Assembly: GCF_055900595.2 (NCBI RefSeq)
Contig: NZ_CM148325.1
Strand: one strand, 5' to 3'
DNA length: 64,000 nt
Position numbers: made by a program. Each line of letters starts with the position of its first letter. The first letter of the stretch is position 1. Below are positions 1 to 12,000 of the stretch, piece after piece.

Positions 1-3000
1 CAGCCGAAACATCAGTATTCCACGCCATACAGACGGCGCCTGACCATGTGCTGATGCAGGTAAAATGTTTCACTACAACTGTTCGGGTTGCTATGCAACG
101 AAACAGCGATTCTCACGATCTTTAACTGCAACGTTTTTCCGCCTGAAAGCTGACTGCCTCCTGCTGAGGTGGGAGGCTATGATTCAGTGCGTTTATAGTC
201 TCCGGGGTATGCATGTACCGGAGCATACCATTTCTGGTGGATAACAAGCCGGCACATTCAGACTGCAGTGAAGATGGAAGCACCTGGTTGTGAAGAACGT
301 TTCTGCCCGTGGCTGCTTCGCATCATCAATGGTATTCATACCCGCTCAGAAATGACCGGGTGCTGAAGCCCTCCGTTATCGCGCAGTATAATGACGTATA
401 TGATCTGTGGACGAGTGAGCGGCGTGCCTGATGTACGCCGCTATTACTGTATTTTACCACAGGGCTGGTTTTCTGCTGCCAGCCCTGTGGTTCTCAGACA
501 TCAACTGTGAGCGGCATCAACCGATGTACGGTATGCCATAAGCACGTACTGATCCATCAGATTTGTCAGTGGTTCACTCTGACCCTGACGTGCAATGATC
601 CATTGCTCCAGATCTTTTTCTGATTTGTGTTTCAGGTTTTTCGTCCAGTCGTCAAGGCTGTTTCCGGTCATTAAGTCAAGCCAGCAGAGCCAGACCAGTT
701 TGAGACGTAACTCCGTGCCGCCAAACTGACGGAAGAGGCTGATCAGTTTGTTTGCCAGAGAATGTTGCTTCAGGCGCTCACATTCAGACAGCAGGATCCC
801 TTCCAGCATCGGATGATGAACCAGCAGGTGTTCGCTGGTGCATAAATTCACCACCAGATCATCATCCAGGGACGGGGAGCTCCGTTTGTCCGGACCATAA
901 ATCAGCCGGTGCAGACTCTGGGGAACGATGGCAATCTCCGGTTTTTCGCCATTGAATGACACCCACCCGGGCGTCAGATTATGGAAATAGTAGATATTCG
1001 GATGACACACGCCCCATGATACGGCGTGCCGGGTGAAGCCGGTCAGCCATTTCTGGTAGTTTTCATGGAGCAGCTCGTAACGGGTCTGATACTGTTGTTT
1101 CATTTTCATATTCCTCACGGGGGATAACAGGCAGCAGAGCGCCGCCGGCAGGCCGGAGATTGCGTCTGCTGTGGGCGAAGGGTTAGTGGTTAAAAATTAC
1201 GGACGGGACTGTGCAATACGCGCCTGCAGCCAGGCTTCCACTTCACTTTTCAGCCAGCGGGAGCTGCGCCCCATTTTGATGGGCGCAGGAAAGCCCCCAT
1301 CTTTGATGAGTTTGTCAAACCACTTATCGGTTAGGCCGGTCAGTTGAGTGATAAACGCCATGTCGACCATCTGGTCATCCATCAGCGAAACTGGGGTAGC
1401 CATGAGAATGTTCCTCCGGATGTTGTTAAACCAGCCGGTGTGGTCATGAAAACAGCGCGCCACCTTCACCGGCATAACAACCGGGGAGAAACGTAAAAAA
1501 TAATCGGGAATGCGGCTGTCCGGAGATAAACGGGGGGATTGCGATGGCAGAGCCGTAGCGGAATCCCGGAGGGGGGGGTTGCGAAAAGATGCTTCCGCAC
1601 GCACGCGCGATAAAGAGGGGATAGTTTTCGTGAGGACAGGGAGAGAAGCAGGCGTTCTGATAATTGCAGAGTTGTTTTCGGAGGTGGTTACAGTGAGTCA
1701 GCCCGTTCCTGGCGAGCAGGAGACTGATATCACCGATGGGATAAGGTTGTCTGATTGGTATTATAAATATAAGAAGTCATCAGAGAGTAACGTAAAGGAT
1801 TTGCCAGAATAACCTAAGAGAGTAAATCTCTCCGGTAACAGAGCGCTGTGAAGCATTCTGTATCAGAGTGCAGATACATGAACGCTGATGCGTAAAATCA
1901 GCAGTGACACGCCAGCTCCCCCTATGCCCATTCCTGTATAAGACATGAACTGAGTGTATTAATGCTTCTGCCCTGAGACTGAGCCGGTGAGTGAGGGGCT
2001 GAGAAATCCCTCTTGACACAGCTCTAACCAGAAATACTTCCCCGGTTGTTGCGGTGCGTCCGGATCCCCGATAACGGAACACTAAGGCTGTATTGCGGGA
2101 CACCGGGTAAGTAGCAGCCCGTAAGGCGTTCTGTCAACGCCAGAAAAAATGATTTCCCACACGCGTTATAGACTCACTCCTGTGGACCTGGAAGCCCGTA
2201 ACTCTGCGTTTGCCCACTGACTGACGGAACTGACCGCAAATTTTACGAGTGCGTGCTGGGCTTCAGTCTGGTCACCTGAGCGTTCGGTAACGGAGGCGCG
2301 GGCGGTAATAGGCTGATTTTCAGGTATTACCGGCTTACAGCGTGTGGTTGATATTGAGGGGCTGTGAGTTTCGCGTATTTGTCAGAAACCCAGACGAGTT
2401 TTCCTGTATGGGACGAAATAAGGCAGCGGCAATACCTGGAAAAATTTAATATGGTATGAAGGAGAACCTGTCGGTTACGCTTAATATACCCGGTACACTG
2501 TCAGCTCAGGGGATACATGAACCGTTATCTCACCAGCTACACAGTATATACACACTGACGCTGACAGTAGTCAGCAGGACCACAATAATCAGTGCCAGCA
2601 GTATGGTAACGATACGGTCTGTATTCCGGTAATAGCCGAAGGGGTCGACAGAACCACAATACGGGCAACACACTGTATTATGAGTAATCGCGTTTCCACA
2701 GTCCCTGCACTTCTTTTTGCGTATCACCATCACTCCCTCCTCACAGCCTTACCCGTAACCGGTTTTTTACATTAAAAAACCAACGCTGAAAATTCAACCG
2801 TCAGTCCGGAGACGACCGTTCGGGTTATCACAGAGTGCCTGAGACAGTGTCCTGCCGGAGGTCACTTCAGGGACTCTGCGCATTTTTTACGACGTGGCTA
2901 TTCCGTATGAACCATACGGAGATTTAACCATGACCTACAAATACAACCCCTTCTGGCAGCAACGTATTCGTGAGACGGTGCGGCACGCACTGAATGTTCA

Positions 3001-9000: not shown

Positions 9001-12000
9001 GGTACCATCATTGCGATGACAAACACTTTGGCGTGGATAATGTAATTAATTGCTGAAATTGACCGTATATGCGGTAAGACTCATATCAGTATCAGGTCCG
9101 GTTAATTGCTGATACTGACATAAACTTTTTACAAAAGGATGAATGCAGAAGGTTACTCTAATGGCCAGAGTGATGACAATGATGGTCAGACGTTGACCTG
9201 CAGAAACTGCATTTTAATTGGTCTATAAAGTCTGCAAGAGGAATCAGGGCCAGATCAGTGAGTCTTATCGCGGCCCGAAGCTATGACTGAAAGAAGGCTG
9301 GATACAGAATTGCAACAATTTGGCAATGTCAGAACACAGAAGCTTTGCAAGCAGGTGAAAGGTTATGTCTAGCAAAAGGAGTATATCAGAATACATCTAC
9401 TGATGTATAAAACACAACAATAGCTTCATGATATATAAATACGTGATGACGAGTGGTACTCCGCATGGTTATTTAACTTCTCAGCACCACTAATGATCCT
9501 GAGCAACTTCGTATTTGGGCCATTGCCATGGAGTAGAAAGCTGTGTCTGAGAATGCAGAATTTGAGAAAAGAATTCGCTTTCTTGGAGAGCTTCTGAAAA
9601 TGGCACGCTAACAACGTTTTGTTAAAAAATGTGAATCACTTGCCGAGGCTGCATTTTCTATTCGAGGAGAATGTTGACGTAGATATTACAGAAATCTCAG
9701 CGCATCAGGATAAACTGCTACCTTAGGTCAACCACCAAAAGAAAATACAATACGTCCAGTTTGTATGCCTTTAATAACACATCTTTTAAATGTTGAAGAA
9801 TTATCCCGCCTGCTGAAGAACGTTGCTCTGAGTGTGATAAACCTTTTTATTCTTGATGATGTCAGCGAGAAGATGGAATATATCCCCGACTGGGTCGTGG
9901 TTACCCGGTTAAACATCTGGTGGCGCTAATAAATCTGGCAAGTCACATTCTGTTGAATGCTGTGACAGTGCCTTACCGAGAGAGCGAAATTGTGGTGTTC
10001 TAGTGCATAGTCGCCACCATTCCGGATAATTCTATTGCGTTGTTTTACAAGTTCTTTTACAGCGCAGATCTGTCGTTGACGTTGAATCAATAGCCTGGAT
10101 TTCAGAACACAATGCCCGTTTGCTGGTTGGTCCGGCAGTAGCATTAATTCATTATCTGAATGAAATGTGTCAATCCACAGAAACCGCTGTCAATGACGCA
10201 TTTTGTCGGACGTTAACACGAGGAAGTCTGGCTATTCCACAATGCCATCTTCTTTCGTAATGGATTGAGAATGCTGGATTTTTAATTATATTACGCGCAG
10301 TATTGATCGTGTAAATGTTTTGCGGTCAGCAATGGTGGGGGATCCATTGTTCTGTTCAATGAATACCATCATACAATTGAATCAGGAGTCGGTATGATGA
10401 TTTTGGTGACGGGGGGCGCACGGAGCGGGAAGAGTCGCCACGCAGAGGCGCTTATTGGGGACTCTTCACAGGTTCTGTATATCGCCACCTCGCAAATCCT
10501 TGATGACGAGATGGCTGCACGGATAGAACATCATCGGCAAGGCCGTCCGGCGCACTGGCGCACGGTGGAGCGTTGGCAACATCTTGATGAATTAATTCAT
10601 GCAGACATTAACCCGCATGAAGCTGTGTTGCTGGAATGCGTTACCACAATGGTGACTAATCTGTTGTTTGATTATGGCGGCGATAAAGACCCTGATGAAT
10701 GGGATTATCAGGCGATGGAACAGGCGATTAATGCTGAGATTCAGTCGTTGATTGCTGCCTGCCAACGTTGCCCCGCAAAGGTTGTATTAGTGACTAACGA
10801 AGTGGGAATGGGGATTGTGCCGGAGAGTCGTCTGGCACGACATTTTCGTGATATTGCCGGGCGGGTAAATCAGCAGCTGGCCGCTGCGGCAAATGAAGTA
10901 TGGCTGGTGGTTTCGGGTATTGGAGTAAAAATCAAATGAGTAAATTATTTTGGGCGATGCTCTCATTTATTACGCGTCTGCCTGTACCGCGTCGCTGGTC
11001 CCAGGGACTGGATTTCGAGCATTATTCTCGCGGTATTATTACTTTTCCTTTAATTGGATTATTGCTTGGCGCGATTAGCGGGCTGGTCTTCATGGTGCTG
11101 CAGGCATGGTGTGGCGTACCACTGGCGGCACTGTTTAGCGTACTTGTGCTGGCGCTGATGACCGGGGGATTCCACCTAGACGGCCTCGCCGATACCTGTG
11201 ATGGCGTATTTTCTGCACGTAGCCGCGATCGCATGTTGGAAATCATGCGTGATAGCCGTTTAGGTACCCACGGCGGTCTGGCATTGATTTTTGTTGTACT
11301 GGCAAAGATTTTGGTGTTAAGCGAGTTGGCTCTGCGTGGCGAACCGATCCTTGCATCGCTGGCGGCAGCATGTGCGATCAGCCGCGGGACTGCCGCATTA
11401 TTGATGTATCGTCATCGTTATGCCCGGGAAGAAGGGCTTGGCAATGTGTTCATTGGCAAAATTGATGGGCGACAAACCTGCGTCACACTCGGCTTAGCCG
11501 CTATTTTTGCTGCCGTATTATTGCCGGGTATGCATGGTGTGGCTGCTATGGTGGTGACGATGGTGGCGATTTTCATCCTCGGTCAGCTTCTCAAACGTAC
11601 GCTGGGCGGGCAAACCGGCGATACGCTGGGAGCAGCCATAGAGCTTGGTGAACTGGTCTTCCTGCTGGCACTGCTATAAAGAGACGTGACATGCAAACAC
11701 TTGCCAATTTACTGAATACGATCCCTGCCATCGATCCTGCCGCTATGTCGCGTGCACAACGGCATATTGACGGGTTACTCAAACCTGTTGGTAGCCTGGG
11801 AAGGCTGGAGGCGCTTGGCGTACAACTGGCGGGAATGCCGGGGTTGAATGGCATACCGCATGTGGGCAAAAAAGCGGTACTGGTTATGTGTGCCGATCAC
11901 GGCGTCTGGGAGGAAGGGGTCGCTATTTCCCCAAAAGAAGTGACAGCCATTCAGGCTGAAAATATGACCCGCGGAACAACCGGCGTGTGTGTGCTGGCAG

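Follow-up and report, generated by a model that had tools for sequence, protein, structure and literature searches.

A decayed, immobile island segment upstream of cobU in Escherichia coli: an intact backbone module beside eroded ggt-locus cargo

The window analysed here is the whole of a 64,000-nucleotide stretch of contig NZ_CM148325.1 (NCBI RefSeq assembly GCF_055900595.2), and our subject is positions 1-10393, the accessory region that ends where cobU begins (10394). This region is very probably the cobU-proximal half of the Escherichia coli cobU island, the pathogenicity or genomic island (PAI/GI-cobU) of extraintestinal pathogenic E. coli (ExPEC). CP4-44 of K-12 is in all likelihood a shorter relic of the same island, the two being differently eroded versions of one element, and we are confident that the island is of the same class as those sitting at tRNA sites behind P4-type integrases. 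At cobU it is a fixed relic, devoid of integrase and attachment (att) sites, that cannot excise and is vertically inherited. Both the hotspot and the island have been described before, and the locus is a reduced variant of that island, ordinary apart from the uncharacterised Aec62 protein family. One more variant of a catalogued island matters little in itself; the locus is a clean worked case of island decay, with a fixed backbone, captured ggt-locus cargo and an IS3 that marks a 13-kb loss. An earlier reading made from the sequence alone (the sequence-only reading) had listed alpA, a hypothetical gene, a YfjJ-like gene, a Cys-rich pair, an ISL3-family insertion sequence (IS), a ggt fragment, a phosphotriesterase-related (PTE) gene and an IS3, and all of these are recovered by open reading frames (ORFs), annotation transfer and profile searches (Table 1).

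PAI-cobU (42-43 kb, with Hma and Fbp) is named for strains CFT073, 536, UTI89, RS218, IHE3034 and UM146 in an island review (PMC7545054). PAI-CFT073-cobU, as well as PAI-536-cobU and PAI-UTI89-cobU, occupies the same site between cobU and tmaR (synonym yeeX), and in PAI-CFT073-cobU the backbone, the ISL3 relic, the ggt stub, the PTE gene and IS100 follow one another just as they do here. The hotspot comparison with other E. coli that the sequence-only reading had proposed bears this out: the window and CFT073 share five collinear blocks at 96.7-99.4% identity, the differences being IS insertions and one 13-kb gap. Starting from cobU, CFT073 carries a cbi remnant, an IS4 fragment, an Hma-type receptor and IbrAB-like genes; then a four-gene cluster (PIG-L deacetylase, glycosyltransferase, acetyltransferase and YaiO) and an IS66 fragment; then a PfkB kinase, a glutamine amidotransferase (GATase), a DMT transporter, the intact PTE gene, the ggt stub and the ISL3 relic; then two zinc-ribbon genes, a Gp2-family gene, a frameshifted small zinc-ribbon gene and an Hha fragment; and finally ISEc20, alpA, the 200-aa Aec62-family gene (split by ISEc10) and IS100, on to yeeW. 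In contrast to CFT073, the 13 kb from the 5' end of the PTE gene to Hma are gone here, with a dead IS3 in their place; the Aec62-family and 66-aa genes are intact, and there is no ISEc20. No Fbp-type ABC genes are annotated in the upstream part of the island in E. coli M160133, a strain that, like TUM1886, matches the region at no less than 99.98% identity over the 10.4 kb. At least 80% of these 10.4 kb is present in 969 of the 5,426 complete E. coli genomes.

In M160133 the island is bounded by cobU and the adjoining cbi remnant on one side and by tmaR with a PduV fragment on the other; the window starts inside it. Moving from the window toward tmaR, M160133 carries IS100, AAA-ATPase fragments and a YeeP-like GTPase, followed by dynamin, RdcB and patatin genes, DUF932, an antirestriction gene, yeeS, yeeT, cbeA, cbtA and yeeW, then the PduV fragment and tmaR itself. 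Since yee/cbtA-type genes lie upstream of the window, the region does not replace CP4-44. At the cobU side, K-12 shares positions 8935-10003 and 10000-12000 of the window (yoeH, yoeG, yeeH, cobU and cobS), with bases 10000-10003 being the 4-bp target, that is, the empty site of the IS5H of K-12. It follows that the region does not take the place of the IS5 and CP4-44 of K-12, as had been suggested: 8935-10393 is common to both, and CP4-44-type genes are found upstream. CP4-44, at the same locus and of the same lineage, shares in addition the stretch from yeeS to yeeW and part of the GTPase gene (outside the window). It has lost the alpA/Aec62/YfjJ/zinc-ribbon module and the ggt-PTE cargo, keeps a fragment of yoeA (an Hma-type receptor), flu and yeeR, and has acquired IS5H and IS2 insertions. 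GC (guanine plus cytosine) content was rejected as an island marker: it lies at 0.47-0.58 across the region, and only the K-12-shared junction is AT-rich (0.40-0.45 at 8750-10250).

The same comparisons bear on the origin of the region. Had a CP4-57-like element and at least one other acquired element landed independently upstream of cobU, replacing IS5/CP4-44 before being shattered by IS, one would expect AlpA and YfjJ family members such as occur in CP4-57 too, at least three IS-family relics within 10 kb and a ggt stub clearly foreign to its surroundings, and all of these are seen. Nevertheless, we consider such a history very improbable: the entire layout, ISL3 relic and ggt stub included, is collinear with the single published PAI-CFT073-cobU, CP4-44-type genes lie upstream while K-12 shares the cobU-side junction, and ggt and PTE are one syntenic segment. 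The resemblance to CP4-57 stands at the level of Pfam families only. Both CP4-57 (the ssrA island of K-12) and AGI-3 (at selC in avian pathogenic E. coli BEN2908) have an AlpA-family regulator and a YfjJ/YagK-family protein in common with the region, and the likeness to the AlpA and YfjJ of K-12 is likewise one of family. We take the gene order of CP4-57 to differ from the order here, and the 'Aec' name is presumably linked to AGI-3. A composite of two or more acquired elements eroded by IS activity had been proposed; degraded and IS-ridden the region certainly is, but the two or more elements resolve into one backbone, one captured segment and a series of IS events.

The ggt and PTE fragments belong at either end of one captured piece of chromosome, because they are collinear with the ggt locus of Salmonella bongori. 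There, a DeoR-PfkB / GATase1-like / DMT_YdcZ / PTE operon (L023/L024 6993-14461) belongs to the core chromosome, flanked by a yhhX-type gene and by ggt. It is convergent with ggt, as in the window, and yhhA-, ugpQ- and ugpCEAB-type genes follow. The CFT073 island cargo is collinear with this operon (77% over 4.1 kb, and 83% for the ggt piece). The PTE gene is full-length in CFT073 (344 aa), and the intact protein has an 88%-identical homologue in S. bongori; homology of the window to CFT073 ends at 7721. The donor of the cargo is closer to E. coli than Salmonella. The ggt stub, with a hairpin (6838-6860) just after it, is a second copy: each genome also retains native ggt at another place. Strain FDAARGOS_1289 displays an intermediate state, with a full-length but frameshifted PTE gene, a stop in the DMT gene, and GATase and PfkB present. 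Of the 'IS-shattered metabolic gene fragments' described earlier, the truncation by IS is real, but the genes are not unrelated pieces. In E. coli, the four-gene PfkB/GATase/DMT/PTE operon occurs as island cargo only.

Two IS events shaped what is left of this cargo. The ISL3 relic has imperfect inverted repeats of 43 nt (77% complementary) and a transposase split into three ORF pieces (NF033550), annotated as a pseudogene with an internal stop; there is no 8-bp target duplication, the flanking octamers being CTTCACAT and TATGGCCT. CFT073 already carries both the ISL3 relic and the ggt stub, which makes the ISL3 event the older one. In the IS3 copy, a 44-bp deletion between two CTGCGTGGAA repeats breaks orfB. 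Its flanks, AGG and CCG, show no 3-bp target duplication, which fits either insertion followed by an adjacent deletion or recombination between IS copies. Between the same flanks (window 7721 and 8935) CFT073 has 13,024 bp and the window has only the IS3, the mark of a loss of 13 kb by comparison with CFT073. Strain ET300 carries this 1,214-bp copy too; the IS3 is therefore inherited rather than active. As a separate observation, residues 171-262 of the ISL3 transposase ORF at 5235-6218(+), about 90 aa, resemble the N-terminus of IS21-family transposases (NF033546, 3.7e-13). This stretch is an insertion relative to the ISL3 profile and could be either chimeric or a subgroup-specific domain.

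We find no integrase-like ORF among the window ORFs in the region and no tRNA in 1-12000, in agreement with the sequence-only reading, which had reported neither an integrase nor a tRNA-side junction; the nearest tRNA-Asn lies 3.4 kb past cobU, behind core genes. Unlike P4-integrase-type islands, the region thus has no integrase and no att site at a tRNA or tmRNA gene. The check upstream of the window, made in near-identical M160133, upholds the remnant reading: neither an integrase nor an att site is annotated in the 35 kb of flank examined, of which about 16 kb is island DNA and the remainder consists of core genes (tmaR to dacD) and P22-like prophage genes. The M160133 annotation downstream, through cobUST, ldtA and asnV, likewise has none, and no direct repeat of at least 11 bp links the two island borders. 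As no integrase or att site remains, the island is fixed and unable to excise. ET300 has the same immobile layout with the same dead IS3. An intact, mobile island with its integrase and att sites just outside the window is close to untenable, and refuted for M160133-type strains. The window edge does cut the island, but no point was found in favour of mobility; against it stand the absence of an annotated integrase from the upstream flank and downstream as far as tRNA-Asn, the lack of a border repeat, the ET300 layout and the sharing of the region by 969 genomes.

Comparison shows how the immobile relic is built. The island backbone is fixed at cobU, with a cargo slot following the zinc-ribbon pair. 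The slot held the DeoR-PfkB kinase, GATase1-like, DMT transporter and PTE genes and the 3' end of ggt, a segment probably taken from the ggt locus of a relative that stands nearer to E. coli than Salmonella does. IS elements have eroded this cargo: the old ISL3 element, which abuts the ggt stub, cuts it on one side, and the IS3 stands in the place of 13 kb of CFT073 (PTE 5' end, DMT, GATase, PfkB, IS66 fragment, PIG-L cluster, IbrAB-like genes and Hma) and was inactivated later by its 44-bp deletion. The ancestral mobile form may have carried its integrase beyond the cargo, on the cobU side, as intact relatives do. Several points weigh against this account. The direction and mechanism of cargo capture are proposals. 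The integrase is absent from the cobU hotspot in all five strains inspected (M160133, ET300, FDAARGOS_1289, CFT073 and K-12), so that relatives at other sites are the sole ground for placing a former integrase on the cobU side. In paralogous copy L007 of the module, an integrase fragment lies on the opposite side, beside the Aec62-family gene with an IS3 between them. Finally, the functions suggested for the backbone derive from Pfam-level similarity and gene neighbourhood, and no promoter or terminator signal exceeds chance, the scan giving counts at or below shuffle expectation.

Positions 501-4555 form an intact backbone module of two divergent units. One comprises alpA and the Aec62-family gene and points to the GTPase/yee end; the other, made up of the YagK/YfjJ gene and two DUF7828/Zn-ribbon genes, is oriented to the cargo. 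Between them lie a dead Hha-like gene and the gene for a small zinc-ribbon membrane protein. All six backbone genes are intact here; cargo and IS elements are dead. Window positions 517-4532 recur at other loci in 3,906 of the 5,426 genomes (median two places each), for instance near the fec genes in EC1, in CEC15 and beside cadC in an O145 strain. Each of the paralogous modules examined has different cargo directly after the zinc-ribbon pair. The ratio of nonsynonymous to synonymous substitution rates (dN/dS) between paralogous copies is 0.07-0.35 in most backbone comparisons, with upper values of 0.51 for the small zinc-ribbon gene and 0.72 for the second zinc-ribbon gene. The mostly low ratios indicate real genes under purifying selection, a selection that acted across family history and not necessarily at the fixed cobU locus. 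The two broken module genes of CFT073, the ISEc10-split Aec62 gene and the frameshifted 66-aa gene, imply that the module is dispensable at cobU in at least one lineage.

The four families are still linked in distant relatives, although their order is reshuffled. Cargo beside the module in such relatives includes a VgrG/DUF4123 type VI secretion effector-immunity set or a LlaJI/AAA_5 restriction-like cluster with SNF2 and HATPase (L015 4596-9776, L017 15973-20597); where the cobU copy has metabolic genes, islands of this kind thus often have conflict systems. Paralogous copies L006 and L007 have an intact 49-aa Hha/YmoA gene at the position of the pseudogene, and the spacer between the YfjJ-like gene and the first zinc-ribbon gene (3486-3671) is about 185 bp here versus about 91 bp in CFT073. 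Two further ORFs in the alpA-upstream spacer, 1510-1812(+) and 1780-2103(-), were rejected as genes: neither has a family match, paralogue conservation ends at 1771, inside these ORFs, and both are accordingly treated as non-coding.

Individual backbone genes point to island regulation, excision or replication as their putative sphere of action. AlpA matches PHROG 66 (excisionase/regulator) at 7e-9, is preceded by a GGAGGA ribosome-binding site and has a dN/dS of 0.07-0.12. The AlpA of CP4-57 is described as a transcriptional activator or directionality factor, and the protein encoded here may likewise be a transcriptional activator or recombination directionality factor. The Aec62-family gene follows alpA after a gap of 93 nt with no terminator-like site and has GAGGAA 7 nt ahead of its ATG; the two genes likely form an operon. 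The YfjJ-like protein (dN/dS 0.12-0.25) is a candidate relative of HUH rolling-circle initiators such as inovirus gpII: an HUH-like HYH within HYHLML and a YxxK-like YLAK are seen in the translation, and there is a weak, partial match to REP_ORF2-G2P (4.7e-5). Unlike for those initiators, no origin or nick site is identified for it, and we know of no activity for the YagK/YfjJ family; it could act as an HUH nickase on the excised element. The 66-aa protein matches PHROG 38187 (function unknown) at 1.6e-5. In the literature, full-text matches to YfjJ, YagK and AlpA were confined to gene lists, and those to Aec62, DUF7828, Zn_ribbon_11 and YagK_YfjJ_C were irrelevant. The backbone genes of a very common island class, which roughly 3,900 of the 5,426 complete E. 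coli genomes possess, remain functionally uncharacterised, the Aec62 family foremost among them.

The sequence-only reading had recognised a gene downstream of alpA for a 202-aa protein of no recognisable family. The gene is confirmed, its length is corrected (200 or 205 aa, depending on the start), and the protein indeed matches no housekeeping or other described family: there is no match in Pfam (even at E<=10), NCBIfam, PHROGs or PADLOC, and the best result of a profile search of PDB sequences is E 0.55. It is 88% identical to E. coli Aec62 (UniProt Q5K5T0). Homologues form about 190 clusters, all unnamed and all from Enterobacterales, and a profile search of 1.84 billion representatives gave 126 matches, mostly fragments, along with a few full-length members at 23-29% identity. 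Family entries elsewhere in UniProt bear propagated and evidently wrong names, such as 'malate transporter' and 'secretoglobin family protein'. P61, G102, L104 and S106-E107-C108 (GxLxSEC) are invariant and an LLCW motif nearly so; a metal site from C33, H34 and HH96-97 was considered and dropped, as these residues vary in distant members. The AlphaFold2 model built with distant members added (predicted local distance difference test, pLDDT, 86.5; predicted template modelling score, pTM, 0.86) supersedes an earlier one from close homologues only (pLDDT 62.8). The predicted fold is a long N-terminal helix, a beta-hairpin and a helical bundle. It has no fold relative in PDB and no viral fold match (BFVD), and a search of AFDB50 returned the family itself alone.

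The Aec62-family gene has a dN/dS of 0.17-0.22. The family is essentially absent from true plasmids and appears in one of 50,697 phage records; that lone match (OR851001.1, Salmonella phage S.Kent 1-2-1) is an unannotated 3.6-kb record, at 33% identity. AlpA lies within three genes of distant Aec62 members in five of the six distinct arrangements examined, the exception being the Salmonella-type one, and DUF7828/Zn-ribbon or YfjJ genes are usually nearby. The order in an intact distant island is YfjJ, AlpA, a 191-aa gene, the Aec62 homologue, cargo (HNH and type I restriction-modification) and a P4-type integrase.

Why six genes stay intact amid dead cargo and IS elements invites another explanation, namely that the backbone is a domesticated functional unit under selection, with the cargo alone decaying; it might, for example, regulate paralogous islands or serve as a defence or anti-defence system not yet described. 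The dN/dS of 0.07-0.35 in most paralogue comparisons, the persistent linkage of the four families in distant relatives and the frequency of defence genes in neighbouring cargo (type I restriction-modification, LlaJI/AAA_5, VgrG) would all agree with it. However, paralogue dN/dS records family history and not necessarily this fixed locus, two module genes are broken in CFT073, and the Hha-like member is dead here. PADLOC yields two weak AlpA matches and nothing else, which leaves no known defence system in the region. On balance we regard domestication as unlikely and retain the view of a fixed, decaying relic. From such an immobile copy the backbone genes may still cross-talk with paralogous islands in the same genome. 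A bolder proposal, which we advance as decidedly unlikely, is that the Aec62-family, the two DUF7828/Zn-ribbon and the HUH-type YfjJ proteins make up an undescribed Enterobacterales island machine for excision, replication control or cargo-slot maintenance, with Aec62 a new partner of AlpA, and that it perhaps acts in trans on paralogous islands.

Table 1. Features of the island segment upstream of cobU (window coordinates)
Feature	Position	Strand	Details
Island DNA between IS100 (just outside the window) and the Aec62-family gene	1-500		no intact gene, short ORFs only; 99.4% identity with the CFT073 island
Aec62-family protein, intact	501-1103	-	200 aa, or 205 aa from GTG at 1118
alpA, AlpA-family helix-turn-helix (HTH) regulator/excisionase, 68 aa	1197-1403	-	Pfam Phage_AlpA (PF05930) 1.8e-5, HTH_17
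Hha/YmoA-like pseudogene	2149-2316	+	in-frame stop at codon 24 (translation)
66-aa protein with N-terminal CxxC...CxxC zinc ribbon and C-terminal hydrophobic helix	2530-2730	-	WP_001297900.1
YagK/YfjJ ('inovirus Gp2') family, putative HUH endonuclease	2930-3499	+	Pfam YagK_YfjJ_C 1.1e-47
DUF7828 + Zn_ribbon_11 protein 1, 133 aa	3759-4160	+	Pfam 2.6e-31, 1.2e-9
DUF7828 + Zn_ribbon_11 protein 2, 135 aa	4148-4555	+	Pfam 7.7e-31, 7e-18; 13-nt overlap with protein 1
Decayed ISL3-family IS	4743-6508	+	inverted repeats 4743-4785 / 6466-6508
3' end of second ggt copy, ~97 codons, frameshifted	6537-6830	+	92.5% identity with native ggt; NF007187 positions 493-531
PTE gene, 5' end cut by IS3	6870-7721	-	NF007373 9e-30, profile positions 36-289
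IS3 copy, 1,214 bp, inactivated	7722-8935	+	99.7% identity with K-12 IS3A end to end apart from a 44-bp gap
AT-rich junction in common with K-12 (yoeH, yoeG, yeeH equivalents)	8936-10393		97.6-99.1% identity with K-12; annotation by the Prokaryotic Genome Annotation Pipeline (PGAP)
IS4-family fragment	9902-10090		within the K-12-shared junction
Cobalamin-biosynthesis gene remnant	10099-10260		within the K-12-shared junction

An Rfam scan of 1-10400 gave nothing at the gathering threshold nor at E<=1, so no known small RNA or riboswitch is present there, and no PHROG match in the region is to a structural, packaging or lysis gene of a prophage. The P22-like prophage genes of M160133 (capsid, gp4, tail needle, ejection proteins and tailspike; L001 1-14730, upstream of dacD and outside the window) adjoin dacD, are broken by an IS1 and are unrelated to the cobU island. 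Further into the window, tRNA genes at 13823-18130 and 58155-59311 comprise four tRNA-Asn and one tRNA-Ser. The asn tRNAs are known island insertion sites. Compared with M160133, the fourth tRNA-Asn is displaced by about 24 kb, deeper into the window, which indicates an extra insertion between about 18 and 58 kb; the source strain, though closely related to M160133, is a different one. Lastly, a trio of dynamin-family, RdcB-family and patatin-like phospholipase genes is kept in the cobU islands of both M160133 (L001 24206-28571) and CFT073 (L014 38551-42904).

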